A stretch of DNA of 45,209 nt from Ignavibacteria bacterium. GTDB taxonomy: Bacteria > Bacteroidota > Ignavibacteria > UBA10030 > SZUA-254. The position numbers were made by a program, and so were the translations under genes. The stretch spans positions 1 through 45,209 of the forward strand of contig QJVY01000065.1 in the NCBI GenBank assembly GCA_003235555.1, given 5' to 3'. Positions 10,553-38,480 of this stretch are shown here, one piece after another. The notes below the pieces were generated by a model. The model made no database searches and had not been told where the DNA came from. It was given only the letters and a program-made list of their open reading frames with translations. Every line of letters begins with the position of its first letter. Within the stretch, counting starts at the first letter, position 1.

Positions 10553-10669
10553 GCTGATCCGTCCCGGTCCACCCCCCCCGCCTCACCAGGCCTCCCCTCC
10601 GCCTACCCTCCCATCCCTTTCCCAGAGTTGGCTATTTCAGGCTGTTTCACCTTCCGGACGCCTGAATAC

Positions 10670-10683
10670 ATGACAAAAATCAT
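10670..10683 (+). promoter_or_regulatory. Candidate CRP/FNR-type operator (ATGAC-AAAA-ATCAT; core TGA-N6-TCA)
   Basis: Read directly from the sequence, in the intergenic region downstream of the Crp/Fnr gene. Its centre lies about 68 nt upstream of the ATG at 10745 that opens the cytochrome block. It resembles the TTGAT-N4-ATCAA consensus. This is a single site and is not statistically tested. Confidence 0.35.
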
Positions 10684-10744
10684 TTTTCAACCTTTTCCGC
10701 GTCATACCGGATATGCCCCCTTGTTGTGTATTTTTCATACAGGG

Positions 10745-11617: not shown

Positions 11618-11623
11618 GGTGCC

Positions 11624-13924
11624 ATGAGTTCGACAGTAACTCACTCTGAACATCCGATGCCCGAACGGGAAGGGATCTCGAAATTCTACATCGCCCTCCT
11701 CGTGACGGGACTCATCGTCGGGGCGACGTTCCTGCTGGGGATCGGCCTCCTCTTTTCCGGAGGGGCCGTCGCACAGACCAGGGACGACTGCCTGATGTGC
11801 CACTCGGACGAAGGGCTCAGCGCCGAGCGGGACGGTGAAGAAGTATCCCAGTACGTCGACGCAACGGTCCTCGACAAATCCCCCCACGGCAAACTGGTCT
11901 GCGTCGCCTGCCATACCCGCTTCAACCCGGAGGAGATGCCGCACAGGGCGAACATCCGCCCGGTAAACTGCCTCACCTGCCACAAGGGCGCCGAGCTGAA
12001 ACATGGCTTCCACCCGCAGCTTGCCGCGGCGATCGCCTCCGGTGAGGATCCCGACGTCGGCTGCAAGGACTGCCACGGGAGGCACGACGTGGTCTCACCG
12101 AAGGAACCGGACTCGCCCTTCAACCGGAAAAACATCTCGGCCGGGTGCGGCCAGTGCCACAGCGATGTCGCCGAAGAGTTCGACCTCTCGGCACACGGTC
12201 TGGCCCATTCGGCCGACGTCAAGGGAGCGCCGGACTGCCTCATCTGCCACGACAGGAAAATCACCGTAACCACGAACCCCGGCAACGGCGTGGGCCTCAA
12301 GCTGGCCCAGGAGCGGCTCTGCCTCAGCTGCCACATGGACAACCCCGACGTCCGAGACAGGACATCCCCTTCGGCCGGTTTCATCGCGGCCTACGAGCAG
12401 AGCGTGCACGGTTCGGCGCTCACCAACGGGAACGCGAACGCTCCGAACTGCGTCGACTGCCACGGAAGCCACCAGATGGCCAAGGGTTTCGACCCGTCGT
12501 CGAAGGTCAGCAAGATGAAGATCGCCGAGACGTGTTCGAAATGTCACGGGGATATCGCCGGGGTGTTCAACGGGAGCGTTCACGGGAAGGCGGTCACCGC
12601 CGGGGTCGAGGACGCTCCCACCTGCACCGACTGCCACGGAGAACACACGATCCTGAAACACAACGACCCGCGCTCGCCGGTGGCCAAGCAGAACCTGTCG
12701 GCGCAGGTCTGCTCCCCCTGCCACAGTTCGGTGGCCCTCTCCACCAAGTACGGCATCGCGAACGACCGATTCAAAACATTCACCGACAGTTACCACGGCC
12801 TCGCGATCCGGGGCGGATCGGTGGAGGTGGCCAACTGCGCCAGCTGCCACGGGTCGCACAACATCAAGCCCTCGTCCGATTCCACGTCGACCATCTCGAA
12901 GGCGAACCTGGTGAAGACCTGCGGACGCTGCCACCCCGGGGCCAACCAGCGGTTTACCGTGGGCGCGGTGCATGTCAACGAAAAATCCCGCACCGAGGAA
13001 CCCCTCCTCTACTGGATCGCGACGCTGTACATCCTGCTGATCGTGGTCACGATCGGCGGCATGCTGTTCCATAACGTGATCGACTTCGTGAAAAAGTCCA
13101 GGCGGAAACTCATGATCCGCAGGGGCCTCATCCCGCATCCGCACGCGGGACCCGGGATGTATGTCAGGATGACCGGGGAGGAACGCTTCCAGCACGCCGC
13201 CCTGCTGATCAGCTTCACGACGCTCGTGGTGACCGGGTTCATGCTCCGCTTCCCCGAGGTCTGGTGGGTGCGCTGGATCCGCGACCTGGGCGGCGGGGTG
13301 TTCGAGGCGCGGAGCCTGACGCACCGCATCGCCGGCGTGGTGATGCTCGCAGCGAGCCTCTACCATGTCTACTACGTCTCCTTCACGAAACGGGGACGGG
13401 AACTGATCCTCGACATGCTCCCCCGCATGCAGGACGTCCGGGACGCGCTGGCGATGGTGAAATACAACCTGGGCATGCGAAACGACCGCCCGCTCTTCGA
13501 CCGCTTTTCGTATATCGAGAAGGCCGAGTACTGGGCGCTCATCTGGGGGACGATGGTCATGGGGGCCACCGGGCTGATCATGTGGTTCGACAACACCTTC
13601 ATCGGGCTGTTGACGAAGCTCGGGTACGACGTGGCCAGGAGCATTCACTATTACGAGGCGTGGCTGGCCACACTCGCCATTATCGTCTGGCACTTCTATT
13701 TCGTGATCTTCAACCCCGACGTGTACCCGCTGAATGTGGCGTTCTGGAAGGGTACCCTCACCGAGGAGGAAATGGAGGAGGACCATCCGCTGGAACTCCG
13801 CAAAATACAAAACGCCGGAACGAAGAAAGACATCGATTCGTCGGATAAAGGGCCCGAACGCCTGGACAAAGGCCCGGACCCGGATCGCGACAGAAACGGC
13901 AACGGACACGGGGGGAAAGCGTGA
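11624..13924 (+). CDS. 13-haem c-type cytochrome fused to a di-haem cytochrome b membrane domain (FdnI/HydC-like); CbcL-like architecture
   Basis: An N-terminal signal anchor is followed by 13 CxxCH motifs (CLMCH, CVACH, CLTCH, CKDCH, CGQCH, CLICH, CLSCH, CVDCH, CSKCH, CTDCH, CSPCH, CASCH, CGRCH). About 5 TM helices follow, with conserved His pairs ('HRIAGVVMLAASLYH', 13 residues apart; 'HYYEAWLATLAIIVWH', 14 apart). Confidence 0.9.
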   Translation: MSSTVTHSEHPMPEREGISKFYIALLVTGLIVGATFLLGIGLLFSGGAVAQTRDDCLMCHSDEGLSAERDGEEVSQYVDATVLDKSPHGKLVCVACHTRFNPEEMPHRANIRPVNCLTCHKGAELKHGFHPQLAAAIASGEDPDVGCKDCHGRHDVVSPKEPDSPFNRKNISAGCGQCHSDVAEEFDLSAHGLAHSADVKGAPDCLICHDRKITVTTNPGNGVGLKLAQERLCLSCHMDNPDVRDRTSPSAGFIAAYEQSVHGSALTNGNANAPNCVDCHGSHQMAKGFDPSSKVSKMKIAETCSKCHGDIAGVFNGSVHGKAVTAGVEDAPTCTDCHGEHTILKHNDPRSPVAKQNLSAQVCSPCHSSVALSTKYGIANDRFKTFTDSYHGLAIRGGSVEVANCASCHGSHNIKPSSDSTSTISKANLVKTCGRCHPGANQRFTVGAVHVNEKSRTEEPLLYWIATLYILLIVVTIGGMLFHNVIDFVKKSRRKLMIRRGLIPHPHAGPGMYVRMTGEERFQHAALLISFTTLVVTGFMLRFPEVWWVRWIRDLGGGVFEARSLTHRIAGVVMLAASLYHVYYVSFTKRGRELILDMLPRMQDVRDALAMVKYNLGMRNDRPLFDRFSYIEKAEYWALIWGTMVMGATGLIMWFDNTFIGLLTKLGYDVARSIHYYEAWLATLAIIVWHFYFVIFNPDVYPLNVAFWKGTLTEEEMEEDHPLELRKIQNAGTKKDIDSSDKGPERLDKGPDPDRDRNGNGHGGKA

Positions 13925-16017
13925 CGATCCGCAATCACCTTCACGCCGCCGCCGGCCGGTGTGCGGTCGCGGCGCTTCTCATCCTGACGTTCACGCAGGT
14001 GGGGTTGGTCATCGCGCAGGAGGACGCCGACTGCCTTTCCTGCCATGAGGACCGGTCCATGGAGGGAACCCGCGACGGGCGGACGATTTCGGTCTTCGTC
14101 AACGGGAAGGTGTTCGCCGGATCCATCCATGCCGCAAACGGGTGCATCTCCTGTCACGCGGACCTGGCGGAAGCGGAGTTTCCCCATGCTGAAGAGGTCG
14201 CACCGGTGGAGTGCGGGACCTGCCACTCGGACGAACAGGAAGAGGAATCGAAATCGCTCCACGGCCGCGCGGCCGAGAGGGGCGACCGGCTCGCGCCGGT
14301 CTGCAAGGACTGCCACGGGACGCACGGCATCCTTCCCAAATCGGACCACAATTCCCCCATCTCGGCGCTGAAGGTCCCTTTCCTCTGCGGGAAGTGTCAC
14401 CAGGAAGGTTCCACGGTGATGACCCAGCGGACCATCCATCAGGACAACATCCTCGAGAACTTCTCCGAGAGCATACACGGCGAGGGGCTGTTGCGCAAGG
14501 GTCTCGTGGTCGCCCCCAACTGCGCGTCGTGCCACACCGGCCACTCGATCCTCCCGCACACCGACCCCGCCTCGTCGATCGCGCGGACCAACATCGCCTC
14601 GACCTGCACGCAGTGCCACGGGGAGATCGAGGAGGTCCACCGCAAGGTGATCAAGGGCGAGCTCTGGGAAAAGGAAGCGCACGTCCTCCCGGCGTGCGTG
14701 GACTGCCACCAGCCGCACAAGATCCGCAAAGTTTTCTACTCGCAGGGGATGGCCGACGCCGACTGCATGCGGTGCCACGACAAGCCCGATCTGAAAGCTT
14801 CCTCCGACGGGAGGTCGCTCGCCGTCGCCGCCGCGGCGCTGGCGCGGTCGATGCACGCGAAAATCTCCTGCAGCCAGTGTCACTCGGAGGTTAACGCCTC
14901 CAAGGTGCGCCCCTGCGAAACCATCGTCCGGAAGGTGGACTGCTCTTCGTGCCATGCCGAGATCAACCTGGAATTCTCGGCGAGCCTCCACGGGACGCGT
15001 GCCATGGAGCAGGACCCGAACGCCCCGACCTGCAAGGAGTGCCACGGTGACCACGAGATCCTCGGGAAACGGAACCCGCTCTCGAAAACCTTCCCGACGA
15101 ATGTTCCGGACCTCTGCGCGCGCTGCCACCGTGAGGGGCAGAAGGCCGCCGTGCTCTACACGGGTATCGAGCATGAGATCATCGAACGGTATACCGAATC
15201 GATACACGGCAAGGGGCTGATGAAAAGCGGCCTGACCGTGACGGCCATGTGCACGAGCTGCCACACCTCGCACAACGTCCGTCCGCGCAGCGACAGCCTC
15301 TCCAGCGTCAACAGGGACAACCTGCCGGCGACCTGCGGCACCTGCCACCACGGGATCGAGGACCAGTTCGAGAAGAGCGTCCATTCGAAGCGGGTCTCGA
15401 AAAGCGACAAACCGCTCCCCGTGTGCGACGATTGCCACACGGCGCACAAGATCCGCCGGGCCGACGAGGAGGGGTTCAAGCTGACGATCATGCAGCAATG
15501 CGGCCGCTGCCACGAGGCTATCGCGAAGACCTACTTCGACACCTACCACGGAAAGGTCTCGCAGCTCGGGTATACCAAGACAGCCAAATGCTACGACTGC
15601 CACGGAGCCCACGATATCCTTCCGGTTGCCGACCCGAACTCCCACCTGAGCCGCGAGAACGTCGTGGGGACGTGCCGGAAGTGCCACGAGGGGGCGACCC
15701 GGATGTTCGCCGGCTACCTCACCCACGCCACCCACCACGACCCGGAGAAGTACCCCCTCCTCTTCTGGACGTTCTGGGGAATGACCTCGCTCCTGATCGG
15801 CACGTTCATCTTCGGGGGGATCCACACCCTGCTCTGGCTGCCGCGTGCGTTCCGGTACAGGAAATTGCTGAAGGAGACCCACGATAAAATCCGCAACGGG
15901 CGGTTAAGCGGGGCGCCGGAGGGGGGCGCGGACCCAGGTGAGAGGGACCCCGGGTCCCCCGATGCGGGTCAGCCCGAAGGGAACCGTGAGAAGAACGACG
16001 GTGGCGATAATGGCTGA
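13921..16017 (+). CDS. 19-haem c-type cytochrome with an N-terminal signal peptide and a single C-terminal TM helix
   Basis: The GTG start overlaps the upstream stop (GTGA). I counted 19 CxxCH motifs by eye. The C-terminal helix is 'YPLLFWTFWGMTSLLIGTFIFGGIHTLLWL', followed by a Gly/Asp/Pro-rich tail. Confidence 0.9.
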   Translation: MTIRNHLHAAAGRCAVAALLILTFTQVGLVIAQEDADCLSCHEDRSMEGTRDGRTISVFVNGKVFAGSIHAANGCISCHADLAEAEFPHAEEVAPVECGTCHSDEQEEESKSLHGRAAERGDRLAPVCKDCHGTHGILPKSDHNSPISALKVPFLCGKCHQEGSTVMTQRTIHQDNILENFSESIHGEGLLRKGLVVAPNCASCHTGHSILPHTDPASSIARTNIASTCTQCHGEIEEVHRKVIKGELWEKEAHVLPACVDCHQPHKIRKVFYSQGMADADCMRCHDKPDLKASSDGRSLAVAAAALARSMHAKISCSQCHSEVNASKVRPCETIVRKVDCSSCHAEINLEFSASLHGTRAMEQDPNAPTCKECHGDHEILGKRNPLSKTFPTNVPDLCARCHREGQKAAVLYTGIEHEIIERYTESIHGKGLMKSGLTVTAMCTSCHTSHNVRPRSDSLSSVNRDNLPATCGTCHHGIEDQFEKSVHSKRVSKSDKPLPVCDDCHTAHKIRRADEEGFKLTIMQQCGRCHEAIAKTYFDTYHGKVSQLGYTKTAKCYDCHGAHDILPVADPNSHLSRENVVGTCRKCHEGATRMFAGYLTHATHHDPEKYPLLFWTFWGMTSLLIGTFIFGGIHTLLWLPRAFRYRKLLKETHDKIRNGRLSGAPEGGADPGERDPGSPDAGQPEGNREKNDGGDNG

Positions 16018-16897
16018 GAAATTACCGGTGGAGGCGAATGAATTACGGCAGCTCCTCCAGTCGCCGGTGGGGGAGAAACAGTTTCTCCGCTTCAGCCGGC
16101 TGAACAGGGCCCTGCACATCATCCTGATCGTGAGTTTCCTGAGTCTTGCGCTGACCGGACTCACGCTGAAGTTTTCCTATACGGGGTGGGCCGTGGTGCT
16201 CTCCCATGTTCTGGGGGGGTTCGAACTCACAGGTTACCTGCACCGTTTCGCCGCCGTGCTGATGTTTTTGATTTTCTTCATACACCTCGGCGACGTCGTC
16301 CGCATGAAGCGTTCGGAACACCGCTCCTGGGGTTCGGTCATTTTCGGCCCCGACTCCATGATGTTCAACAAAAAAGACCTGTCGGATTTCATCGGTTCGG
16401 TGAAATGGTTCGTGGGGAAGGGCCCCAGGCCGCAGTTCGGCCGCTGGACGTACTGGGAGAAGTTCGACTACTTTGCGGTCTTCTGGGGGGTGGCGGTCAT
16501 CGGTTCCACGGGGCTGATGCTCTGGTTCTCGGAGTTCTTCACGCGGTTCCTCCCCGGCTGGCTGATCAACGTGGCGACGATCATCCACAGCGACGAAGCG
16601 CTTCTCGCGGTCGGGTTCATCTTCACGGTTCATTTCTTCAACACCCACCTCCGCCCCGAAAAATTCCCGATGGACATCGTGATCTTCACCGGACGGATGG
16701 ACGTCGACGAGTTCATGCTCGACAAGCCCGGCGAATACGAGGAGCTGAAGAAATCCGGAAAGCTCGATGAAAAACTGGTTGAACCCTACCAGCCGATCGT
16801 CATCCGGGCCGTGAAGGCCTTCGGGTGGACGGCGCTCACGATCGGGTTCAGCGTCGTGGTCTGGATCATCTACGCCATGCTTTTCGCATACCGGTGA
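16010..16897 (+). CDS. Di-haem cytochrome b membrane subunit (FdnI/HydC/PhsC-like), partner of the 19-haem cytochrome
   Basis: The ATG at 16010 overlaps the upstream stop by 8 nt (ATGGCTGA). The protein is clearly homologous to the C-terminal domain of the 11624 gene: 'RF.R..R..H', '[16 protein letters not shown]', '[21 protein letters not shown]' and '[20 protein letters not shown]'. Confidence 0.85.
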
Positions 16898-16984
16898 CCT
16901 CCCCGAAGATGGAGCGGCCGGCAAGTTTGAGAATTAGCCCGTAATCATTACATTGATCACTGTTTCTTATCATTGTCCCTTTTC

Positions 16985-18481
16985 ATGAAAAGAATCTTTC
17001 CACCGTCATTCTACAACATCATCACGCTCATCGGGACGGCGGTTGCGGGTGTCACCTTCGGGCTGATCCTCTTCCTGATCCTGATCGAATCGATGGCCGC
17101 CCAGGAGAAGCCCTACATGGGCATCGTGACGTTCGTGATTCTCCCGGTGTTTTTGTTGCTGGGCATCGCTGTCATGATCTTCGGGATCATGCGCGAACAC
17201 CACCGCGAGAAATTGGGGAAACCCCACTCCCTCCGTCTTCCGCAGATCGACCTCAACAACCCCAAGCACCGGACCGCGTTCGTGTCCTTCGCGGTCGGCG
17301 GCGTTTTGTTGCTGCTCTTCTCGGCCTTTGGCAGCTTCAAGGCCTACGAGTACACCGACTCCGACCAGTTCTGCGGGGAGACCTGCCACTCGGTCATGGA
17401 GCCGGAATACACCGCTTACCAGTTCTCCCCCCACGCGAAAGTGGGCTGCGTCCAGTGCCACATCGGATCCGGGGCCGACTGGTTCGTCCGGGCGAAAATA
17501 TCCGGCAGTTACCAGCTCTACGCCGTTGCGTTCAACAAGTATCCCAAACCGATCCCGACCCCGATCGAGAACCTCCGTCCGGCCCAGGAGACCTGTGAAC
17601 AGTGCCACTGGCCGAAGCATTTCTTCAGCGAGAAGCAGAGGGTCAACACCTACTTCCTCGCCGACGACGACAACACGAAGTGGAGCATCAACCTGCTGAT
17701 GAAGATCGGCGGGGGCAACATCGAGGCGGGACCCACCTCCGGCATCCACTGGCACATGAACATCGCCCACGAGGTGACGTACAAGGCGCTGGACAGGGAG
17801 CGCCAGGTGATCCCGTGGGTGCGCTCACGGACCCCCGAGGGCGAGGAAACGATCTACAGGAGCACCGAGGTCGAAGTCACGGAAGACTCGCTCGCGAACG
17901 CGTTCACGCGCCGCATGGACTGCATCGACTGCCACAACCGGCCGACGCACATCTACCACCCACCCGCCCCGTCGATAAACCACCTCATGGCCCTCGGGTG
18001 GATCAGTCCCGCCCTTCCCGGCATCAAGGCCGTCAGCCTGGAGGCGCTCGAGGGCGAGTACTCCACGAAGCCGGGCGCGCTCGACACCATCGGCGCGACC
18101 ATCGAGGGATACTACCGGGACAACCACCCGGAAATCCTTTCGACCATGCGCACAGCCGTCGACAGCGCCATCGCCGAGGTCCGGAAGATCTACAGCCGGA
18201 ATTACTTCCCCGAGATGCGGACAGACTGGAAAAAATTTCCCGACAACCTGGGTCACCTGTACTCGCCGGGATGTTTCCGCTGCCACGACGGGAAGCACGT
18301 GACGGACCAGGGGAAGGTACTGTCGAAGGATTGCAACACCTGCCACACCATCCTGGCGCAGAAGTTCGAAAACGATTCACTCAGGATATCGCTCGGAGGT
18401 ATCCAGTACCGGCACCCCGTGGACATCGGAGGGGCGTGGATGGAAATGAACTGCAGCGAATGTCATTCAGCAACCCAGTAG
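16985..18481 (+). CDS. Inner-membrane 7-haem NapC/NirT-like cytochrome c (ImcH-like architecture)
   Basis: There are three N-terminal TM helices. The first haem site, 'FCGETCHSVMEPEY', is NapC/NirT-like but is C-x3-CH. Six canonical CxxCH motifs follow (CVQCH, CEQCH, CIDCH, CFRCH, CNTCH, CSECH). I prefer the ATG at 16985 (MKRIFPP) over the TTG at 16973. Confidence 0.85.
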   Translation: MKRIFPPSFYNIITLIGTAVAGVTFGLILFLILIESMAAQEKPYMGIVTFVILPVFLLLGIAVMIFGIMREHHREKLGKPHSLRLPQIDLNNPKHRTAFVSFAVGGVLLLLFSAFGSFKAYEYTDSDQFCGETCHSVMEPEYTAYQFSPHAKVGCVQCHIGSGADWFVRAKISGSYQLYAVAFNKYPKPIPTPIENLRPAQETCEQCHWPKHFFSEKQRVNTYFLADDDNTKWSINLLMKIGGGNIEAGPTSGIHWHMNIAHEVTYKALDRERQVIPWVRSRTPEGEETIYRSTEVEVTEDSLANAFTRRMDCIDCHNRPTHIYHPPAPSINHLMALGWISPALPGIKAVSLEALEGEYSTKPGALDTIGATIEGYYRDNHPEILSTMRTAVDSAIAEVRKIYSRNYFPEMRTDWKKFPDNLGHLYSPGCFRCHDGKHVTDQGKVLSKDCNTCHTILAQKFENDSLRISLGGIQYRHPVDIGGAWMEMNCSECHSATQ

Positions 18482-18493
18482 CCCAAAACAGAC

Positions 18494-18949
18494 ATGGAAA
18501 ACAGAACGGAACAACCCGCACAGCCCCGCAAGAGGGAACTGCTCATGTGGATTCTCTCGGGGGGCCTGTTCGGCATGGCCGCATCGATACTCTACCCGCT
18601 CTTCGCGTACCTGAAACCGCCCAGGCTCGGCGAGGTGGAAACGTCATCGGTCAAGGCGGGCAAGGTCGACGATTTCCAGGTCGACAGCGGGCAAATCATC
18701 AAATTCGGGACGAAACCCGTGCTGCTGGTCCGGACTCCCAACGATGAATTCCGGGCGTTCTCGGCCGTCTGCACGCACCTCGACTGTACCGTACAGTACC
18801 GCAGGGAGAAAGGGGTGATCTGGTGTGCGTGCCACAACGGAACGTACGACCTGACCGGGAGGAACATCGGCGGACCTCCTCCGAGGCCGCTCGATGAATT
18901 TCGCGTCGTGATCCAGGGAGAGGAGGTTCTCATTTCGAAAAAAGCATGA
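18494..18949 (+). CDS. Rieske [2Fe-2S] subunit of a cytochrome bc/b6f-type complex
   Basis: An N-terminal TM anchor is followed by Rieske box I 'CTHLDCTV' and box II 'CACHNGTYD'. The stop overlaps the start of the cytochrome b gene (ATGA). Confidence 0.9.
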
Positions 18950-20025
18950 AAAAAAGACTGAACATCCTGTACGAGTGGGTCAACGACCGGGTTCATCTCG
19001 AGGACCTCGTCGAATTCCTGGGAAAAAAGTACGTGCCGGTCCACAGCCATTCCGTCTGGTATTACTTCGGCGGGGTTTCCCTCTTCCTGTTCATCATCCA
19101 GGTGGTCACCGGCATCCTCCTCCTGCTGTACTATAAGGGGAGCGAAGAACTGGCCTTCGAGAGCATCAAGTTCATCATGTCCAAGGTGGCGTTCGGCTGG
19201 CTCATCAGGTCGGTCCACAGCTGGGCGGCGAACCTGTTCGTCCTCGCGGCGATGATCCACATGTTCAGCGTCTACTTCACGAAGGCGTACCGGAAACCCC
19301 GCGAAATCACCTGGCTCACCGGCATGCTCATGTTCTTCCTGGTGCTCGGGTTCGGTTTCAGCGGGTACCTCCTTCCCTGGAACGAACTCGCCTTCTTCGC
19401 GACGAAGGTGGGCACGGACATCGCCGGCGTCATCCCGGTCATCGGGAAACCCATCATGGTCTTCCTCCGAGGCGGAGAGGACGTCACGGGAGCGACGCTG
19501 TCCCGGTTCTTCGGTTTCCACGTCGCCGTGTTCCCCGGGATATTCACGGTCCTGCTGGGCATCCACCTCATCCTCGTGCAGCGCCAGGGGATGAGTGAAC
19601 CCCTCCACATCGAACGCGGGGGGGGCAGCGGCGGCAAAACGATGCCCTTCTTCCCGAATTTTCTCCTGCGGGACCTTCTCCTGTGGCTCATCGTGCTCAA
19701 CCTCCTCGCCATCCTCGCGGTGTTCTTCCCCTGGGAACTGGGACAAAAAGCCGACGCGTTCGCCCCGGCCCCCGCCGGAATCAAACCGGAATGGTATTTC
19801 ATGTTCATGTTTCAGACCCTGAAATACATCCCGGCGAAATTATGGATCATCGACGGGGAAGTTTTTGGAATCATGCTTTTCAGCATCGCGGGACTCTTGT
19901 GGACCCTCGTTCCGTTCTGGGACGCCAAGAGTGCACGCGGAGAAAAAAGCCGCCGGATCATTTACATCGGCATCTTCGTCGTCATGTACATCATTGCCCT
20001 GACAATTCTCGGATGGCTCTCATGA
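18946..20025 (+). CDS. Cytochrome b (fused b6 plus subunit IV type)
   Basis: 'VWYYFGG', the helix-B pair '[15 protein letters not shown]' (13 residues between the His), the helix-D pair '[16 protein letters not shown]' (14 between, which is b6-type), '[13 protein letters not shown]', and the Qo-site 'KPEWYF' motif. Confidence 0.95.
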
Positions 20026-21515
20026 ATGGTCGATATCGCGGTTTTCTCACAACGTTCGTCCTCATCTTCCTGTTGCACTGTTCCCCGGCGTTACGTGCTC
20101 AGGACGGGTGCCTGACGTGCCATCAAACCATGGAGGATCCGCGGGCGGCTCTCTTCCTGAAGGACGTCCACAAGGCGAAGGGGTTTTCCTGCGCGGACTG
20201 CCACGGCGGAAACCGGAATGCGGAGGATATGGAGACGGCCATGGATCCCGACGCCGGTTTCAGGGGGGTCCCGTCCGGGGACGAGATCACGGAGATGTGT
20301 TCGACCTGCCACTCGGACGGATCGGCCATGGTCAAGACCTATAATTCCATCCTCCCGTGGGGACAGAAGGCCCTCCTGGAGGCCAGCGTGCACAATAAGC
20401 TCGCCTCGAACGGGAAGGAACGGATCGTCAACTGCGCGACGTGTCACAACGCGCACGGGATCCTCCCGGTGGAAAATCCGGCTTCCCCGGTATATCCGCT
20501 CAACGTGACGAAAACCTGCGGGAAGTGCCACTCCGATGCCTCGTACATGCGGATCTACAATCCCACCATCGCTGTGGACCAGGTCGACAAGTACCGGACG
20601 AGCGTTCACGGGAAGAAAAACGCATCCGGGGACCGCAAGGTGGCCGAATGTGCGAGCTGCCACGGCAGTCATGAGATCCGTTCGGCGAAAGACGTCAAGT
20701 CCAGGGTGTACCCCACGAACGTGCCCGAAACGTGTTCGTCCTGTCACTCGAATCCGGAATACATGGCGGGGTACGGCATCGAGTCGGACCAGTTCGAAAA
20801 ATATTCGAAGAGCGTCCACGGGAAAGCCCTCCTCGAGAAGAACGACATCGGCGCTCCGGCGTGCAACGACTGTCACGGGAACCACGCCGCCACCCCGCCG
20901 GGGGTCGCGTCCGTGTCCAACGTCTGCGGGACGTGTCACGCCCTGAACGCGGATCTCTTCGCCCAGAGCCCCCACAAGGAGGCGTTCGACGAAGCCGACC
21001 TCCCGGAATGCGAAACGTGCCACGGGAATCACGAGATCGTCTCCGCCTCGGAAAAACTTCTCGGCGTCTCCGATGAAGCGGTGTGCAGCTGGTGTCACGG
21101 CGGGGATCCGGAGTCGAAAGGCTATAAGACCGCGGCCTCGATGAGGTTGCTCGCCGACAGCATGGACAGGGCCGAACGCCGGGCAATCGGACTCGTCGAG
21201 GACGCGGAACAGAAAGGCATGGAGATCTCCGACGCGAAGTTCAAACTCCGGGATGCACGGCAGGCCATTCTCCAGTCACGCACCATGGTGCATTCCTTCG
21301 ACGAAGAGAGGTTTCGGGAGGTGATTACCGCCGGTATCGCCGTTACGGCCGTCGCGGGCAGCGAGGCAAACGAGGCGATCGATGAATATTATTTCCGGCG
21401 ATGGGGACTCGTCTTCGCGACGTCGATGCTGATCCTCCTCTCGATTTCACTCTACGTCTACATCCGGAAACTGGAAAAAAGGAAAGAGACCGGAACCCGG
21501 AATTCCGCCGGCTGA
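20022..21515 (+). CDS. 11-haem c-type cytochrome with a C-terminal TM anchor, translationally coupled to the Rieske/cytochrome b genes
   Basis: The ATG at 20022 overlaps the cytochrome b stop (ATGA). Signal peptide [27 protein letters not shown]. There are 11 CxxCH motifs (CLTCH, CADCH, CSTCH, CATCH, CGKCH, CASCH, CSSCH, CNDCH, CGTCH, CETCH, CSWCH). A predicted helical segment and the TM helix '[21 protein letters not shown]' follow. Confidence 0.9.
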
Positions 21516-21571
21516 CGGGGAGACGGGTCGGATGGTCGATGACCGGGATTCTTAATTTTGAGAAACCCGGA

Positions 21572-21589
21572 TATGACGTATCTCATATC
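21572..21589 (+). promoter_or_regulatory. Candidate CRP/FNR-type operator: inverted repeat ATATGA-cgtatc-TCATAT (core TGA-N6-TCA)
   Basis: Read directly from the AT-richer gap between the two cytochrome operons. It shares the ATGAC-N4-nTCAT layout with the site at 10670-10683. Confidence 0.3.
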
Positions 21590-21765
21590 TGAAAATATCA
21601 TGCATCACCCGGACCCTGCCCGGTTGTAAAATCCCCGCTGATACCACTGGAGGCCCATTCCCGGATTCCCTCAATTCCCTCCCGAACTGGCACCAAATTT
21701 GATAGACCTGTACCGGTCTCTTTCCAGATAGTCCCGCCATCAATCATGATGATGAGGAGAGTCAG

Positions 21766-21996
21766 ATGAAGAAGTTCATTTTCATCGCGCAGGTGGTCAG
21801 CGTCTCCCTGATATGGCTCTTCGTCGTCGTCATAACACTCTGGATACTCAACCTTATCTCCCTTTCCATCGATCTCAACGACATGCCCGGTGCCTCCGTA
21901 GGCATCAGCATCGTCGCTATTCCCATCTTCATCACCCTGGCCTCGATCCTCACCTACGTCTTTATCGGATTGCAAAGGGGTAAAAACAAAGGTTAA
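21766..21996 (+). CDS. Small hypothetical two-TM membrane protein
   Basis: 76-aa ORF preceded by GAGGAGAG. The product is strongly hydrophobic (IAQVVSVSLIWLFVVVITLWILNL; ISIVAIPIFITLASILTYVFI). Its composition is AT-richer than its neighbours. I do not recognise the family, so it could be spurious. Confidence 0.45.
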   Translation: MKKFIFIAQVVSVSLIWLFVVVITLWILNLISLSIDLNDMPGASVGISIVAIPIFITLASILTYVFIGLQRGKNKG

Positions 21997-22018
21997 CCAA
22001 CCTCCGAGGAGGAACACG

Positions 22019-23182
22019 ATGGTACGTACACTATTCTGGATGCTCTGCATCATTGTTCCCGGAACACTCTCTGCCCAGGAAATCCGGCTGCCGCAGAACC
22101 CGCTGGAAGGGAGAATCGTCTTCGAGGAGAAGGGTTGCATCGAATGTCACCAGCTCGGGGGATACGGCGGGACCGCGGGACCATCCCTGAGCAAGGACCT
22201 CTACTTCGGGACCGTCCTGGAGTTGGCGACGATCATCTGGAACCATACGCCCCAGATGAACCGCAAATTCCGCCAGATGCGGGTCTCCCGTCCGGAATTC
22301 ACCGAGAAGGAGATGACCGACCTGTTCGGGTTCCTCTACTACCTCAGGTACCTGGGAGAACCCGGCGGGGTGGCGAGGGGAAAGAAGTTGCTCGAATCCA
22401 AGGGCTGCAGGCAGTGCCATTCCCTGGGAGGATCGGGTGGTGGGGTCGGAGTCCCGCTCGATTCGATCACGGTGACCGCGTCCCCCCTCTACATCGTGCA
22501 GTCGATGTGGAACCACGTCCCGGCGATGAAGGAGCAGATCTCGAAGACAAACCTGGTGTACCCCGAACTCTCCGGTCAGGACATCGCCGACATCACGGCC
22601 TACATCCGCCAGGCGACGATGAACACGACGGTCGTGGGGGGCGCGGCACCCGGCGATCCCCACCTGGGAAGGGAAATCTTCGCCTCGAAAGGCTGCAACG
22701 ACTGCCACATGACCGGGGAAGGAAAGAGGAAAATCATCGCCCCCAACCTCTCGCGGATCGAGTTGCGGGAAAGCGTCACCGAAACCGCGAGCCTGATGTG
22801 GAACCACGGCCCGATGATGCTGCAACACATGGAGGACAGGTCGATCGACTGGCCCCGATTCGAGGGGAACGAGATGGCGGACCTGATCGCCTACCTCTAC
22901 TTCCTGGATTTCGAGGACAAACCCGGGGACCCGAAAAAGGGAGAGGGTGTGTTCGCGGCGCGCGGGTGTGGCAGCTGCCACGGGAAAAACGGATCCGGGA
23001 AGGGACCCGACCTGGCGACGATCACGCACTTCGATTCCCCCATCAGGATGATCCAGCTGATGTGGAACCACGCCCAGAGCATGGAGGACATGCTCATCAC
23101 GCAGAACAAGCACTGGCCGGAACTGACCGGTGACGAGATGCGCAACCTCTACGCCTACATCAGGGAAGCAACGAAGAAATAA
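22019..23182 (+). CDS. Tetra-domain class I c-type cytochrome (four tandem monohaem repeats)
   Basis: A strong RBS (GAGGAGG) lies 6 nt upstream, and a signal peptide is present. Four repeats of about 90 aa each carry 'KGC..CH' (CIECH, CRQCH, CNDCH, CGSCH). Each is followed about 30 aa later by 'WNH.P/Q.M', which probably supplies the Met axial ligand. Confidence 0.9.
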   Translation: MVRTLFWMLCIIVPGTLSAQEIRLPQNPLEGRIVFEEKGCIECHQLGGYGGTAGPSLSKDLYFGTVLELATIIWNHTPQMNRKFRQMRVSRPEFTEKEMTDLFGFLYYLRYLGEPGGVARGKKLLESKGCRQCHSLGGSGGGVGVPLDSITVTASPLYIVQSMWNHVPAMKEQISKTNLVYPELSGQDIADITAYIRQATMNTTVVGGAAPGDPHLGREIFASKGCNDCHMTGEGKRKIIAPNLSRIELRESVTETASLMWNHGPMMLQHMEDRSIDWPRFEGNEMADLIAYLYFLDFEDKPGDPKKGEGVFAARGCGSCHGKNGSGKGPDLATITHFDSPIRMIQLMWNHAQSMEDMLITQNKHWPELTGDEMRNLYAYIREATKK

Positions 23183-23211
23183 CCTTCCGACACAACCATA
23201 CCCGGCCGTCG

Positions 23212-23739
23212 ATGAAAGAGTTGAAAACAGGGTCGATCGCGAGCGTTGTCGTCCGATTTGCGTATGCGGGGTGCCTGATCCTTTCCGGGGCATGCGCGAT
23301 CTCTTCGGGGGACGAGCCGGACCAACCCATTGCCTACAATCACAAACTGCATATCGAGACCGTCGGACTCGAGTGCGCGGAGTGCCACCGCTACGTGGAA
23401 ACGTCCGCCGCCGCCACGTTACCACCCCTCGAAGTGTGCCGCTCCTGCCACGAGTCCGAACCGCTCACCGAGTCTCCGGAGGAAACCGTCCTCCTGAAAT
23501 ATGTTGCCGACGGGACCGAGATCCCGTGGAAGAGGATCTATCACGTCCCGGACCACGTCTATTTTTCACATCGCCGGCATGTCGTCCTGGGGGAACTCGA
23601 CTGCGGTCTGTGCCACGGGGTCATGCAGGAGCAGACGGCGCCGGTCCGGTCGGCGTTTCTCGAGGTGAAGATGGAGAACTGCATGGACTGCCACCGGGAA
23701 CACAAGGTCACCAATGATTGTCTCTCCTGTCATCGTTGA
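23212..23739 (+). CDS. Pentahaem c-type cytochrome (ActA/QrcA-like position)
   Basis: An N-terminal hydrophobic anchor is followed by 5 CxxCH motifs (CAECH, CRSCH, CGLCH, CMDCH, CLSCH). The gene sits directly upstream of the molybdopterin-family / FeS / NrfD trio. Confidence 0.85.
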   Translation: MKELKTGSIASVVVRFAYAGCLILSGACAISSGDEPDQPIAYNHKLHIETVGLECAECHRYVETSAAATLPPLEVCRSCHESEPLTESPEETVLLKYVADGTEIPWKRIYHVPDHVYFSHRRHVVLGELDCGLCHGVMQEQTAPVRSAFLEVKMENCMDCHREHKVTNDCLSCHR

Positions 23740-23753
23740 ACGAGGGGTGAAGA

Positions 23754-26210
23754 ATGGAAATTAGTCGACGTGATTTCGTCAAGCTGATCGGGGGGATATC
23801 GGGTAGCGTCGCGCTCGGGGGATGCGCCCTCGACGAAGTGCTGGAGATTCCGGAGAGGATCGTCCGCCGGATGCGCACCGGGCCGGGGCTGGAAACCTGG
23901 AAGAACACCGTCTGCGGATTGTGCCCCGCCGGGTGCGGGATGAGCGTCCGGCTGATCGACTCCGTACCCGTGGGGATCAAGGGGAACGGTCAGTATCCGG
24001 TCAACCAGGGAGGTCTCTGTCCGCTGGGGCTCAACGCACTCCACCTCCTTTACCATCCCGACCGCCTCAAGGGACCCGTCCGGAGGGTGGGGAATCCCGG
24101 GAGCGGGAAATGGGAACCGGTCTCCTGGGATGAAGCACTGACAACGATCGCCGACCGGCTGACAGAACTCCGGAGGTCCGGGCGGTCCCGCGAGGTCGCG
24201 GTCCTCGGCAACACGGAGCGGGGTGTGATGGAGGAACACCTTCGCCGGTTCCTGACGTCGTACGGCTCGCCCAACTACTTCCGATTTTCACCGGAACAGA
24301 ACGATTCGGTCCCCTTCGCGCTCGTCCACGGCCGTCCCGACATTCCCTCGTTCGACCTGCTCGGCGCCGGCCTGGTGTTGAGTTTCGGCGCGAACTTCCT
24401 GGAGGACGGGTGGTCGCCGGTGTATTACACGAAACTCTACAGCCGGCACCGGGAGCAGCAGACGCGGTACATCCAGGTGGAATCGCGCATGAGCATGACC
24501 GCCTCGAACGCCGAACGCTGGATACCCGTGCGTCCCGGGACGTACGGGGCGCTCGCCCTCGGTATCGCGTACGTCCTCATCCGGGAGGACCTCTTCAACG
24601 AACGGTTCGTGCGCAACGACACGTTCGGATTCGAAGACTGGGTCGATACCGCGGGGACGAAACACATCGGTTTCCGGAACATCGTCCTCGGGAACTACTA
24701 CCCGGAGAAGGTCTCGGAAATCACGGGCGTCCCGGCCGCAACGATCCTGGAACTCGGGAGGCTCGTGGGAAGCACGCCGAAGACCGTTGTCATCGGCGGG
24801 TCGGGTGCGGGCGACAATACCAACGGGACATTCTCACAGATGGCCGTTCAGAGCCTCAACGCCCTCCTCGGGAACTACGACCCCGGGGGAGGGGTCTTTT
24901 TCCACGGCCATGCACCGCTCGACCGGTTCCCCGATCTCACGCTCGACGGTCCGGCGAAGGCGGGCATCCGGGCCGAACCGCTCGGCGGCCCCGGGAAGGA
25001 TGCGTATCCCCTGACCGGTTTTTCCATCGATCGCTTTGCGAAGAACGTTGCCGCGGAAGAACCCTACCCCCTCAGCGTCCTCTTCCTCTACGGCGGCAAT
25101 CCCCTCTTCCAGGCGCTGAACCACCAGGACCTTTCCGCCGCGCTGAAGAAGGTCCCGCTCGTCGTCAGTTTTGATACGATCATCAACGAGACGAGCGAGT
25201 ACGCCAACCTCGTGCTCCCCGAACACACGTTCCTGGAGAACTGGGGCGAGGTTTCGGACGTCCCGACGGTCGGGTTTTCGCACCTCGGCATCCGGCAGCC
25301 CGTGGTCGAGGCCCTGCACGACACGCGCAACGCCGGTGACGTGTTCATCGAACTCGCCCGCCGGATCGGCGGCGCCGTCGGCTCGTCGGCCCCGTTCACC
25401 GATTACCTCGGGGGACTCAAACACGCCGTCCGCGGTCTGTACCGGTCCGGCGAGGGCTCCGTGGTCACGCGCGGTCAAAAGACGCGGTGGCTCGAATACC
25501 TCCAGCAGAGGGGATGGCAGAGCGGTCGGTACTCGAGCTTCGATGAGTTCTGGGACCAGCTTCTGACCCACGGGGGCTGGTGGAATCCCGTGCGGCGGGA
25601 TGGGAAGGCGGGCGGCAAATTCCCGACTCCATCCGGGAAGTATGAATTCTACTCCCGGAAACTGATGGATGAACTCCACGCGCGGGCGGACCGCGGCGGG
25701 ACCACGGACTCCCGGGGGAACCTCGAATCGCTGCTGAGCCGCCTGGACATCGCGGCCCGGGGGGACAACGTGGCCCTTCCGCACCACGAGCCCGTGCCCT
25801 ACGAAGGGGACCGTCCGCTCTACCTGGTCACGTTCCAGGTGCTCCCCAACCGTGACGGTGTCGGGGCCGCTCTCCCGATGATGCAGGAAATGTTCGGGTA
25901 CGCGGTGCACGCCCACTGGGAGTCCTGGGTCGAGATCCACCCGGAGACGGCCGCCGCCGCGGGCATATCCTCCGGGGACTGGACCTGGGTGGAGTCGTCG
26001 GTCGGAAGCGTGCGGGTCAGGGCCAGGGTGACGCCCGGCATCATGCCCGATGTTGTCGCGATTCCCTTCGGGATGGGTCACACCTCCTACGGACGGTACG
26101 CGCGGGGCTACGGGGTCAACCCGAACACCATCCTCAGGAACCTCCACGACCGGTTGAGCGGCAAGCCCGCGACCGGGGCGACAAAAATCAGAATCTCACG
26201 TGCAGTCTAA
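23754..26210 (+). CDS. Molybdopterin-oxidoreductase family large subunit (complex iron-sulfur molybdoenzyme, CISM, alpha-like) with a Tat leader
   Basis: 'MEISRRDFVKLIGG...ALGGCA' is a Tat motif plus a possible lipobox. The FS0 motif 'CGLCPAGCG-x27-C' (C-x2-C-x3-C-x27-C) is present. Typical blocks include 'ISWDEAL', 'YGSPN', 'ANF.E', 'RPGTYGALALG' and the C-terminal beta-barrel 'V.IHPETAAAAGISSGDWTWVES..G'. Confidence 0.9.
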   Translation: MEISRRDFVKLIGGISGSVALGGCALDEVLEIPERIVRRMRTGPGLETWKNTVCGLCPAGCGMSVRLIDSVPVGIKGNGQYPVNQGGLCPLGLNALHLLYHPDRLKGPVRRVGNPGSGKWEPVSWDEALTTIADRLTELRRSGRSREVAVLGNTERGVMEEHLRRFLTSYGSPNYFRFSPEQNDSVPFALVHGRPDIPSFDLLGAGLVLSFGANFLEDGWSPVYYTKLYSRHREQQTRYIQVESRMSMTASNAERWIPVRPGTYGALALGIAYVLIREDLFNERFVRNDTFGFEDWVDTAGTKHIGFRNIVLGNYYPEKVSEITGVPAATILELGRLVGSTPKTVVIGGSGAGDNTNGTFSQMAVQSLNALLGNYDPGGGVFFHGHAPLDRFPDLTLDGPAKAGIRAEPLGGPGKDAYPLTGFSIDRFAKNVAAEEPYPLSVLFLYGGNPLFQALNHQDLSAALKKVPLVVSFDTIINETSEYANLVLPEHTFLENWGEVSDVPTVGFSHLGIRQPVVEALHDTRNAGDVFIELARRIGGAVGSSAPFTDYLGGLKHAVRGLYRSGEGSVVTRGQKTRWLEYLQQRGWQSGRYSSFDEFWDQLLTHGGWWNPVRRDGKAGGKFPTPSGKYEFYSRKLMDELHARADRGGTTDSRGNLESLLSRLDIAARGDNVALPHHEPVPYEGDRPLYLVTFQVLPNRDGVGAALPMMQEMFGYAVHAHWESWVEIHPETAAAAGISSGDWTWVESSVGSVRVRARVTPGIMPDVVAIPFGMGHTSYGRYARGYGVNPNTILRNLHDRLSGKPATGATKIRISRAV

Positions 26211-26227
26211 ATCAGAGGGACCCGCCC

Positions 26228-26911
26228 ATGGCTAAATGGACGATGGCGATCGACCTGGACCGGTGCACCGGCTGCGGCGCGTGCATGGTGGCGTGCAAGA
26301 CGGAGAACAACGTCCCCATCGTGACCCCGGAGGAGGCCCACGAGGGCAGGGTGATGAACTGGATGGAGATGATCACCGAGTACGAGGGTGATTATCCCAA
26401 CCTCTCGGTGAGGCGGATGCCGAAACCCTGCTTCCATTGCGACAATCCCCCCTGCACGCGTGTCTGCCCGGTGGGGGCAACGTACCGGAACGAGGAAGGG
26501 CTCGTCGCCCAGATCTACCACCGGTGCATCGGATGCCGGTACTGCATGGTCGCATGCCCCTTCACGGCGAAGGTGTTCAACTGGCATGAACCGATCTGGA
26601 TGGAAGGGGCGGACACCTGTTATAATCCGGACGTGTCGCGGCGGATGGTCGGTGTAGTGGAGAAGTGCTCCTTCTGTGCTCACAGGCTGACGAAAGTGAA
26701 GGAAGAGGCTGACGGGGAGGACCGGTCGAATAACGACGGGGAGTACCTCCCCGCCTGCGCCGAGATCTGCCCCGCGGACGCGATCACGTTCGGGGACCTC
26801 GAGGACAGGACGAGCGCCGTCTACGGGAAGTCGCGGGATTACCGGGCCCACAGGATCATGGAGGACCTGGGTGTGGAACCCAAAGTGTACTACCTTTCGA
26901 AGAGGACGTGA
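26228..26911 (+). CDS. Four-cluster [4Fe-4S] ferredoxin subunit (PsrB/NrfC/QrcC/ActB2-like)
   Basis: Four Cys groups are present: 'CTGCGACMVAC', 'CFHCDNPPCTRVCP', 'CIGCRYCMVACP' and 'CSFC...ACAEICP'. It has no signal peptide of its own, which is consistent with Tat hitch-hiking on the large subunit. Confidence 0.95.
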   Translation: MAKWTMAIDLDRCTGCGACMVACKTENNVPIVTPEEAHEGRVMNWMEMITEYEGDYPNLSVRRMPKPCFHCDNPPCTRVCPVGATYRNEEGLVAQIYHRCIGCRYCMVACPFTAKVFNWHEPIWMEGADTCYNPDVSRRMVGVVEKCSFCAHRLTKVKEEADGEDRSNNDGEYLPACAEICPADAITFGDLEDRTSAVYGKSRDYRAHRIMEDLGVEPKVYYLSKRT

Positions 26912-28254
26912 TGACAGAGAAACATCTTCCCTACGAACACGAACTCGACGCCACGCTCTACAAGCCCATCTATCACACCGGGAAGGGGTACTACCTGACG
27001 GTCGCCGTCCTCCTCGCCGTCATCGTCTGGGCGCTCTACATGTTTTACATGCAGCTCCGGACGGGCCTCGGCCTCACCGGGATGGCTCAGCCGATTTCCT
27101 GGGGCTTCTACATCGTCAATTTCGTGTTCTTCATCGGCATCAGCCATGCGGGGACGCTGATCTCGGCGATCCTCCGCCTCTCCAAGGCGGAGTGGAGGCG
27201 CCCCATCACCCGCATGGCGGAGGTCATCACCGCCATCGTCCTGGCGATCGGGGGGCTGCACCCGATCATCGACCTCGGACGGCCGGACAGGATGCTCAAC
27301 CTTCTCACCTCGGGGCGGCTCCAGTCCCCGCTCCTCTGGGACGTGACCAGTATTACGGCCTACTTCACGGCGAGTACCGTGTACCTGTATGTGCCGATGA
27401 TCCCAGATATCGCCCGCCTGCGCGACCAGGGGGGGAAGATGAAATGGCTCTACACCTTCATGGCCTGGGGATTCACCGGCACCGAGCGCCAGAAACACAT
27501 TCTCAACCGCGCCATCAATATTTTGATGGTGATGGTCATCCCCATCGCGGTTTCGGTGCATACCGTCATTTCCTATATCTTTTCGATGACCCTTCAGCCG
27601 GGCTGGCACAGCACGATCTTCGGCCCGTATTTCGTGGTCGGCGCCATCTTTTCCGGCATCGCGGCCCTGTTGATCGTCATGATCGCCTTCCGGAAGGCCT
27701 TCCACCTGGAGGCGTACCTGAAGGAGATCCACTTCAAGTACCTCAGCACGCTCATGCTGATCATGTCCATCATCTGGTTCTATTTCACCTTCTCGGAGTA
27801 CCTGACGGGTGTCTTCGGCGACGAACCGCATGAAATGGACATCATCATGTACAAGTTCACCGGGCCCTTCGCAGTCTTTTTCTGGGGAATGGTCGTGTGT
27901 AATTTCGTCATCCCGATGGTCCTCCTCGCCTTCAAGAAATTCAAAACGATGACCGGTATCCTCGTAGCTTCCATCGCCGTGGTGACCGGCATGTGGCTGG
28001 AGAGGCTCATCATCGTCGTGCCGTCGCTCGCGAACCCGAGGATGGACCTGCCGATGGGGATCTACATCCCCACCGCGACGGAATGGGCCCTGTTCGCCGG
28101 AGGGATCGCCGTCTTCATCCTCGGTTTCATGCTGTTCGCGAAGATGTTTCCGTTGATTTCGATCTGGGAGATCGAGGAGGGAAGGAAAGAGGGTTTGAAG
28201 GAGGTCGAGGAGAGGATCCACAGCTACCTCCCGTCCACCCCCGGCACGACCTGA
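26908..28254 (+). CDS. NrfD/PsrC-family polytopic quinone-interacting membrane subunit (ActC/QrcD-like size)
   Basis: The 448-aa product is very hydrophobic, with 'WGFYIVNFVFFIGISHAGTLISAILRL' and 'W......ITAYF', which are typical of NrfD family proteins. The start is either GTG 26908 or ATG 26911; both overlap the FeS gene stop. Confidence 0.9.
   Translation: MMTEKHLPYEHELDATLYKPIYHTGKGYYLTVAVLLAVIVWALYMFYMQLRTGLGLTGMAQPISWGFYIVNFVFFIGISHAGTLISAILRLSKAEWRRPITRMAEVITAIVLAIGGLHPIIDLGRPDRMLNLLTSGRLQSPLLWDVTSITAYFTASTVYLYVPMIPDIARLRDQGGKMKWLYTFMAWGFTGTERQKHILNRAINILMVMVIPIAVSVHTVISYIFSMTLQPGWHSTIFGPYFVVGAIFSGIAALLIVMIAFRKAFHLEAYLKEIHFKYLSTLMLIMSIIWFYFTFSEYLTGVFGDEPHEMDIIMYKFTGPFAVFFWGMVVCNFVIPMVLLAFKKFKTMTGILVASIAVVTGMWLERLIIVVPSLANPRMDLPMGIYIPTATEWALFAGGIAVFILGFMLFAKMFPLISIWEIEEGRKEGLKEVEERIHSYLPSTPGTT

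Positions 28255-36224: not shown

Positions 36225-38480
<2,256 letters not shown>

Follow-up and report, generated by a model that had tools for sequence, protein, structure and literature searches.

Three adjacent genes in a 45,209-nucleotide (nt) stretch of an Ignavibacteria bacterium genome (contig QJVY01000065.1) likely encode a single membrane complex, a menaquinol:multihaem-cytochrome c oxidoreductase of the Rieske/cytochrome b superfamily, in which an anchored cytochrome with 11 haem-binding motifs would take the place of cytochrome c1 or f. The whole stretch is referred to here as the window; coordinates are those of the window, on its plus strand unless stated otherwise. The trio consists of the following genes.

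18494..18949, plus strand: Rieske [2Fe-2S] subunit, 151 amino acids (aa), Pfam PF00355
18946..20025, plus strand: cytochrome b of the fused b6 + subunit IV type, 359 aa, PF00033 + PF00032
20022..21515, plus strand: undecahaem c-type cytochrome, the proposed c1/f replacement, 497 aa, 11 CxxCH motifs

Read directly, both the Rieske/cytochrome b and the cytochrome b/multihaem junctions are ATGA start/stop overlaps (GCATGAAA and CTCATGAATGG); the length of 497 aa is counted from the ATG that overlaps the cytochrome b stop codon. An earlier note on this DNA had proposed a Rieske/b6-type complex with an anchored 11-haem subunit at the place of c1/f, a reading that gene order, occurrence in a second phylum and natural gene fusions support. 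The features it had described have held as well. Translational coupling of the three genes through ATGA overlaps is seen both in the list of open reading frames (ORFs) and at the junctions, while Pfam domains and residue positions agree with a fused-type cytochrome b with a histidine spacing of 13/14 and a PEWY motif. The haem-ci cysteine, which the note had considered lost ('WYYFGG'), is a tyrosine when aligned with spinach b6. For the third gene, sequence, hydropathy and the long helices of an AlphaFold2 model fit the signal peptide, 11 CxxCH motifs, coiled segment and C-terminal anchor that it had listed.

Homologues of the 11-haem protein were searched for in a 90%-clustered protein collection, which gave more than 5,000 matches. 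The best 120 of these are about 490 aa long and 59-94% identical to the window protein, come from Bacteroidota/Ignavibacteria metagenome-assembled genomes (MAGs), and are mostly unnamed or called 'cytochrome c3 family protein'. With one genome taken per GTDB species, relatives occur at 366 places. The earlier note had called the arrangement unusual, which is too strong in view of this number and of the Geobacter clusters with 10- and 12-haem cytochromes published in 2010 (PMC2825233).

For a comparison of loci, the window proteins were run by tblastn against the best 80 of the 366 places, all of which lie in Ignavibacteria-type or 'Bacteroidota' MAGs. Syntenic Rieske-b-multihaem triplets, which the earlier note had suggested looking for, are the rule: in each of the 74 loci whose flanks are long enough, the 11-haem gene is immediately preceded by the Rieske and cytochrome b genes. 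Of the other six, three have a cytochrome b truncated at the contig end and three lack the flank. The Rieske and cytochrome b genes overlap by 4 nt in 66 of 73 loci and are at most 12 nt apart in all 73. The cytochrome b/multihaem junction measures -4 or -13 nt, depending on the choice between two nearby ATGs, in nearly all measurable loci; there are two outliers, one of them explained by an N-masked stretch. An apparent read-through from cytochrome b into the multihaem gene in one locus (L079) was discarded, being due to masked N bases. Flanking genes, which are described below, vary among loci, and the conserved unit is therefore the trio. One MAG, SZUA-525, carries two copies of the trio on different contigs (L013 and L022), through either paralogy or strain mixture in the bin.

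The same trio, as separate genes in unrelated neighbourhoods, is found in Thermoanaerobaculia (Acidobacteriota), where two split loci show the order Rieske, cytochrome b, multihaem protein with a 4-nt overlap. Furthermore, several relatives of the window's cytochrome b are long proteins with 8-11 CxxCH motifs after the cytochrome b part. The C-terminal parts of these long proteins are 38-40% identical to the 11-haem protein of the window, and in P0125, P0126 and P0271 the match extends through its helical region to the anchor. Fusions were counted among the best 120 matches to the full-length fusion P0271 (903 aa). At least 95 of these are fused clusters of 784-1012 aa, in which cytochrome b is joined to the homologous multihaem domain (11 motifs in 68 clusters, 10 in 9 and 9 in 18), and 25 are split versions of about 540 aa, all with 11 motifs.

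The fusions that were examined, such as P0271, retain the helical region and end with the same C-terminal anchor. In both fused loci examined, which lie on contigs of 0.74 and 0.80 Mb, the gene directly before the fusion encodes a Rieske protein, and the other neighbours are unrelated. Extra transmembrane (TM) helices between helix G of cytochrome b and the haem domain (P0121/P0271, P0126) keep the haems periplasmic. Thermoanaerobaculia fusions (L081 7001-9856, L082 7001-9862, P0271, P0320-P0395) have up to about 10 TM helices. Recurrent fusion, together with synteny in two phyla, argues strongly at the level of sequence for the multihaem protein as a genuine part of the Rieske/b enzyme. A lack of co-conservation, which the earlier note had named as a refutation, is thereby answered.

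The Rieske protein matches Pfam PF00355 with an E-value of 4.8e-13. Both cluster-binding boxes, CTHLDC and CACHNG, and both disulphide cysteines are present, and a KR-type Tat-like motif is followed by a single N-terminal TM helix at residues 16-34. NCBIfam models of the b6f PetC-like kind match only below their cut-offs. Among solved structures, the Rieske proteins of Kuenenia (9rk4, 9rk3) are nearest, and b6f PetC comes next. The positions that tune the redox potential are occupied by Gly and Tyr ('CACHNGTY', compared with 'CPCHGSKY' in Kuenenia). This pair belongs to the 'Mid-' class of about +200 mV, which is associated with cytochrome b of the Chlorobi/NC10/Acidobacteria type (Kao & Hunte, PMC4122944).

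Cytochrome b contains the Pfam domains Cytochrome_B (PF00033, 1e-49) and Cytochrom_B_C (PF00032, 1.6e-10) within a single polypeptide. Its haem ligands are H91/H105, with 13 residues between them, and H192/H207, with 14, and PEWY is found at residue 281. Where spinach b6 reads 'NIFYCLGG', the window protein reads 'SVWYYFGG', so that the haem-ci cysteine is replaced by tyrosine; Y-x-GG is also present at this site in the closest representatives examined (P0121-P0128). Among solved structures, its first 220 residues match the b6 protein of b6f best (2e-58). On NCBIfam, the cytochrome b6 model PRK03735 gives 237 bits and the ExtP model 210 bits (209.9; cut-off 290), both under cut-off. A hydropathy scan gives seven TM helices, and the C-terminus is therefore predicted to be periplasmic.

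Relatives of this cytochrome b were collected by searching, without a profile, 1.8 billion representatives of 50% clusters. The nearest are 43-55% identical and come from Thermoanaerobaculia (Acidobacteriota), Eisenbacteria, Vampirovibrionales, Myxococcaceae, a 'Chlorobiales' MAG, Wallbacteria and Planctomycetota. The 'Chlorobiales' representative (49% identity) is the sole one recovered from the green sulfur bacterial side, and the source labels are sparse.

The 11-haem cytochrome can be divided into four parts.

20022..20102, plus strand: signal peptide, aa 1-27 (...SPALRA/QD), read from the sequence, with hydrophobic residues 8-26; variable in the alignment, in which the remainder is conserved
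20103..21101, plus strand: periplasmic haem domain, aa 28-360, from motif positions
21117..21404, plus strand: helical region leading from the haem domain to the anchor, aa 366-461, containing the invariant His424, from AlphaFold2
21405..21473, plus strand: C-terminal TM anchor, aa 462-484, with a hydropathy peak at 463-481

The CxxCH motifs begin at residues 30, 57, 93, 138, 166, 210, 238, 281, 302, 330 and 355. They form one N-terminal haem site and five two-haem modules of the pattern SVHGK...CxxCHGxH...CxxCH. All 11 are invariant in 24 aligned homologues of 58-94% identity, and so they are not there by chance. Ten histidines outside the motifs are invariant too: nine in the haem domain (50, 124, 145, 196, 217, 266, 288, 318, 337) and one, His424, in the helical region, which is also invariant in the Acidobacteria and in the fused forms. 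Among the aligned Ignavibacteria-type homologues, Met74 and Met103 do not vary; most Acidobacterial and fused forms also have Met74, while their Met103 region does not align. Eleven haems set against ten invariant non-motif histidines, with Met74 and Met103 also invariant, would allow for one His/Met haem. One haem or more may thus be His/Met-ligated and of higher potential, and so plausible as the point where electrons arrive from the Rieske centre. AlphaFold2 predicts long helices at 366-397, 403-425 and 428-495, a block with predicted local distance difference test (pLDDT) values of 74-93. An FRR motif precedes the anchor, and all aligned homologues show 'YYFRRxGL' followed by a hydrophobic stretch.

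Apart from its own family, the 11-haem protein is most readily compared with other electron-transfer cytochromes. Its modules are 33% identical over 266 aa to the neighbouring 19-haem CbcL-like cytochrome, and the NCBIfam model of DmsE-family decahaems (TIGR03508) gives 60.3 bits, under its cut-off of 192.2. Pfam returns multihaem families only. The homology to the 19-haem modules and the weak likeness to DmsE/MtrA fit the role of an electron wire.

It might instead be supposed that the 11-haem subunit is a catalytic terminal reductase of the HAO/NrfA/octahaem type, which would make the complex a quinol:substrate oxidoreductase; its substrate might be a metal, a sulfur compound or a nitrogen oxide. 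Foldseek ranks Kuenenia HAO and HDH first for the AlphaFold2 model, followed by octahaem nitrite reductase and MccA. These matches are non-significant (best E-value 0.02, TM-scores of 0.23-0.31) and derive from a low-confidence model, and the likeness to HAO/HDH, with E-values of at least 0.02 and TM-scores of at most 0.31, was set aside as too weak to use. There are weak matches to Pfam Cytochrom_C552 and to NrfA in the PDB (E-values of about 0.006-0.009; a sequence search of solved structures recovers NrfA fragments alone, at about 0.008), and one homologue is labelled nitrite reductase c552 at its source; the best family likeness, however, is to the DmsE/MtrA electron-transfer decahaems and to the wire-like CbcL-like modules, and the CxxCK motif is absent from the 11-haem protein. 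With 11 haems and ten invariant distal histidines, one haem is possibly five-coordinate, but its sixth ligand could come from one of the invariant methionines. A precedent for a catalytic subunit has been proposed in the Kuenenia Kuste4569-4574 complex, which has an HAO-like subunit (PMC12954380). Taken together, a reductase seems improbable.

We infer from the sequence the assembly of the complex, its forward, quinol-oxidising direction, menaquinol as its substrate, proton coupling by a Q cycle and a His/Met entry haem. Menaquinone is the quinone of Ignavibacteria. The Rieske cluster and the PEWY loop of the seven-helix, b6-like cytochrome b would together make up the Qo site, at which quinol would be oxidised. 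Of its two electrons, one would pass through the two b haems to a Qi site without covalent haem ci; the second would be carried by the mobile Rieske head to a haem of the 11-haem subunit. The latter would sit in the c1/f position, held by its C-terminal TM helix and the helical region, and the electron would leave the membrane along the remaining haems of this subunit to reach acceptors in the periplasm. The complex probably operates a Q cycle.

Rieske/b complexes are reversible in principle, and electrons might flow the other way, from a periplasmic or extracellular donor such as Fe(II) through the 11-haem protein and Rieske/cytochrome b into the quinone pool, driven by the proton motive force. 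A similar arrangement in Zixibacteria, with PetAB clustered with multihaem cytochromes and MtrAB, has been read as Fe(II) oxidation (PMC3903129). In the window, on the other hand, the trio adjoins genes of the ImcH-like and CbcL-like kinds, and the Geobacter proteins of these names are quinol oxidases; no outer-membrane conduit or Fe-oxidase gene was recognised in the window; in Acidobacteria the trio stands alone. Reverse operation accordingly has little probability.

Several points weigh against a complex of the proposed kind, running forward. Another c-type partner may be encoded elsewhere in the genome, beyond the window; no electron acceptor was recognised within the window. For the haem domain, AlphaFold2 gives a poor model (mean pLDDT 68, predicted TM-score 0.41), from which no haem geometry can be read. 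Bis-His multihaem cytochromes usually lie far below the Rieske centre in potential, and a forward Q cycle therefore needs at least one tuned haem. Finally, the topology of P0125 (790 aa, from a single contig) would place the haems in the cytoplasm. This protein retains a signal peptide directly after helix G, an impossible topology, and was not relied on as evidence of fusion; it is likely the product of a lost stop codon or an artefact of gene calling or sequencing.

From the Crp/Fnr-type regulator onward, the plus strand of the window carries a run of quinone-pool modules, the trio among them. The other features of this run are listed here.

9842-10552, plus strand: Crp/Fnr-family regulator
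11624-13924, plus strand: fused CbcL-like protein, 766 aa, with 13 CxxCH motifs and a cytochrome b561 domain
13921-16897, plus strand: split CbcL-like unit, a 19-CxxCH cytochrome (698 aa) and an FdnI-like cytochrome b (319 aa)
16973-18481, plus strand: ImcH-like NapC/NirT-family cytochrome with three TM helices and seven haem sites (PF03264, NCBIfam NrfH-like)
21766-21996, plus strand: 76-aa ORF with two TM helices, seemingly unannotated
22019-23182, plus strand: tetrahaem class-I cytochrome c, 387 aa

The regulator and a universal stress protein (9842-11617, plus strand) lie directly upstream of the cytochrome run, the gene of the latter ending 6 nt before the first CbcL-like gene. Their placement suggests redox or oxygen control of the cytochrome island. 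In the split CbcL-like unit, the longest ORF of the FdnI-like cytochrome b overlaps the preceding gene by 80 nt, and its true start is probably further downstream.

The ImcH-like gene ends 12 nt before the Rieske start. Its product has TM helices at 20-38, 51-69 and 102-120, six CxxCH motifs and one CxxxCH motif, and matches the architecture of ImcH (a NapC/NirT domain, three N-terminal TM helices and seven haem sites, as described in bioRxiv 10.1101/2023.05.03.539133), the name referring to architecture only and not to orthology. The gene is adjacent to the trio (within 150 nt) in 53 of 64 loci; in nine, an insertion of 2.7-2.9 kb encoding a multihaem cytochrome, a 4Fe-4S protein and an NrfD-type protein lies between them. 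In L001 (1566-4328) and the eight other loci, the inserted products are a TM-anchored multihaem cytochrome (264 aa), a 4Fe-4S protein with a Tat signal and the NrfD-type protein, and the site between the ImcH-like gene and the Rieske gene seems to collect quinol-oxidoreductase modules. Membership of the ImcH-like protein in the complex was considered but is not supported, given this three-gene separation in nine loci and the absence of the gene beside the Acidobacterial trios; it is probably co-transcribed with the trio as a separate module.

Downstream, the 11-haem gene is followed by a 503-nt gap, in which the small ORF lies, and by the tetrahaem cytochrome c and a QrcABCD-like set (21766-28254 including the ORF). 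The 76-aa ORF was rejected as a fourth subunit: it is 62-83% identical in exactly the 18 loci that carry the cytochrome c and the Qrc-like module, and because of this exact co-occurrence it is probably a small subunit of that module. The cytochrome c and Qrc-like module are present downstream in only about 20 of the 80 loci. The class-I cytochrome c (22019-23182) was likewise rejected as a c1-like partner; it occurs in those approximately 20 loci, always with QrcA/B-like genes, and since it tracks the Qrc-like module and not Rieske/b, it is not an obligatory partner. The region 22019-28254 (plus strand) encodes, besides this cytochrome, a QrcA-like pentahaem protein, a QrcB-like molybdopterin-family protein, a 4Fe-4S protein and an NrfD-type membrane protein. 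This module looks Qrc-like and not like a full alternative complex III (ACIII), because no ActD/E/F genes were seen there.

Elsewhere in the window, a KatG-type catalase-peroxidase adjoins a 335-aa protein with weak matches to an MtrC domain and to cytochrome c' (36225-38408 and 38706-39716, both minus strand). Several window proteins (6318-7931, 29391-30869, 34832-36112) carry C-terminal sorting domains of the type IX secretion system, in keeping with the Bacteroidota/Ignavibacteria source of the best homologues of the 11-haem protein.

With several quinol oxidase modules side by side in the window, and with green sulfur bacterial Rieske/b operons that are not known to carry a c-type subunit, one might see in the trio mere co-transcription of a two-subunit Rieske/cytochrome b enzyme with an independent anchored carrier that serves several quinol oxidases (ImcH-like, CbcL-like and Rieske/b), but this is very improbable given the recurrent in-frame fusion of cytochrome b and multihaem protein in another phylum and the strict adjacency of the genes even where ImcH and CbcL genes are missing. 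Green sulfur bacteria do possess cytochrome b-Rieske complexes (PMC3362086).

A three-subunit complex in this setting invites a wider proposal, which is tentative and as a whole rather doubtful. According to it, the trio would be widespread among Ignavibacteria-like Bacteroidota and Acidobacteriota, where it would conserve energy while passing electrons from the menaquinol pool to acceptors of low potential in the periplasm or outside the cell. It would be a Q-cycle enzyme whose high-potential arm is a helix-mounted 11-haem wire across much of the periplasm, and it would stand beside the electroneutral ImcH-like and CbcL-like oxidases as one of several potential-dependent 'gears'. If true, this suggests that the two-subunit complex of green sulfur bacteria would descend from a multihaem-bearing ancestor. 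Dibrova et al. 2013, cited in PMC5317091, had suggested that early bc complexes used multihaem acceptors.

How a Q cycle can run in a Rieske/b enzyme with a multihaem acceptor, which is usually of low potential, is an open question that has been raised for the Geobacter and anammox complexes. With three genes, or two where cytochrome b and the multihaem protein are fused, the trio is a simple case without the extra subunits of the Kuenenia complexes, and the family is found in hundreds of soil, sediment and groundwater species. If the trio is a true proton-coupled quinol oxidase for extracellular or other periplasmic respiration in these abundant, uncultured bacteria, the energy yield expected of such metabolisms changes and the genes would be a useful genomic marker. 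The natural fusions should also ease expression and structure determination.

Complexes of this kind, with a Rieske/b core and a multihaem cytochrome, are already known; the 11-haem family itself is uncharacterised, and it is common, not rare. A full-text search of literature largely outside the subscription journals, so that an earlier account is possible, gave no description of the 11-haem family or of the Acidobacterial fusions. In Geobacter, a Rieske protein (GSU2933) and cytochrome b (GSU2932) are encoded beside 10- and 12-haem cytochromes in the conserved cluster GSU2930-GSU2937, and delta-proteobacterial complexes typically have a tetrahaem subunit (PMC2825233). This Geobacter cluster (Cbc6; NCBIfam ExtM-ExtS) resembles the trio in having a Rieske protein and a b6-like cytochrome b beside large multihaem cytochromes, and its host also has ImcH and CbcL. 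However, the ExtP model covers the four-helix b6 part only, and the window cytochrome b scores 210 against its cut-off of 290. The 11-haem protein is no homologue of ExtM or ExtN (22 and 18 bits), and the Geobacter cluster has several cytochromes where the window has a single, C-terminally anchored one.

In the Kustd1480-1485 and Kuste4569-4574 complexes of Kuenenia stuttgartiensis, b6f-like cores are combined with a hexa- or octahaem cytochrome c that has a TM helix and replaces cytochrome f, and one complex is wrapped by long helices (PMC12954380). These cores have split b6 and subunit IV and a haem cN, whereas the window protein is fused and without the haem-ci cysteine. At the tuning position, Ser is found in the Rieske proteins of Kuenenia, which measure +303 and +335 mV, and Gly in that of the window. 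Unlike the window trio, the Kuenenia complexes also include an NAD(P) oxidoreductase subunit and, one of them, an octahaem subunit resembling HAO; no NAD(P) oxidoreductase gene was found within 9842-28254 or next to the trio in loci L081-L084.

Ignavibacteria are the sister lineage of Chlorobi, whose cytochrome b is not known to carry the haem-ci cysteine. Their operons are not known to contain a c-type subunit, whereas the 11-haem subunit is always present in the trio. Like the window protein, the long Chlorobi cytochrome b keeps the two Gly residues of the former CxGG motif (PMC5600118) and has PEWY (PMC4122944), and the Rieske protein is of low to mid potential. The type strain of I. album is reported to rely on ACIII and to have as its only cytochrome b one of the GPWY type, fused to a c7 domain (PMC3362086, PMC4122944).

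The trio shares with cyanobacterial and chloroplast b6f the 13/14 histidine spacing, seven core helices, PEWY and a C-terminally anchored c-type subunit. It differs in the fusion of b6 and subunit IV, in the absence of the haem-ci cysteine and in the replacement of cytochrome f by an unrelated 11-haem protein; small Pet subunits were not found. Cytochrome bc1 differs, with an eight-helix cytochrome b, a 13/13 spacing and a monohaem c1, compared with seven helices, 13/14 and no c1 homologue in the operon. The MtrA/DmsE decahaems and the c-type domain of CbcL-like proteins have similar repeated modules of paired CxxCH motifs. Unlike these, the window protein is anchored in the inner membrane by a C-terminal helix, and it is tied genetically to a Rieske/cytochrome b pair and not to an outer-membrane porin or an FdnI-type cytochrome b.

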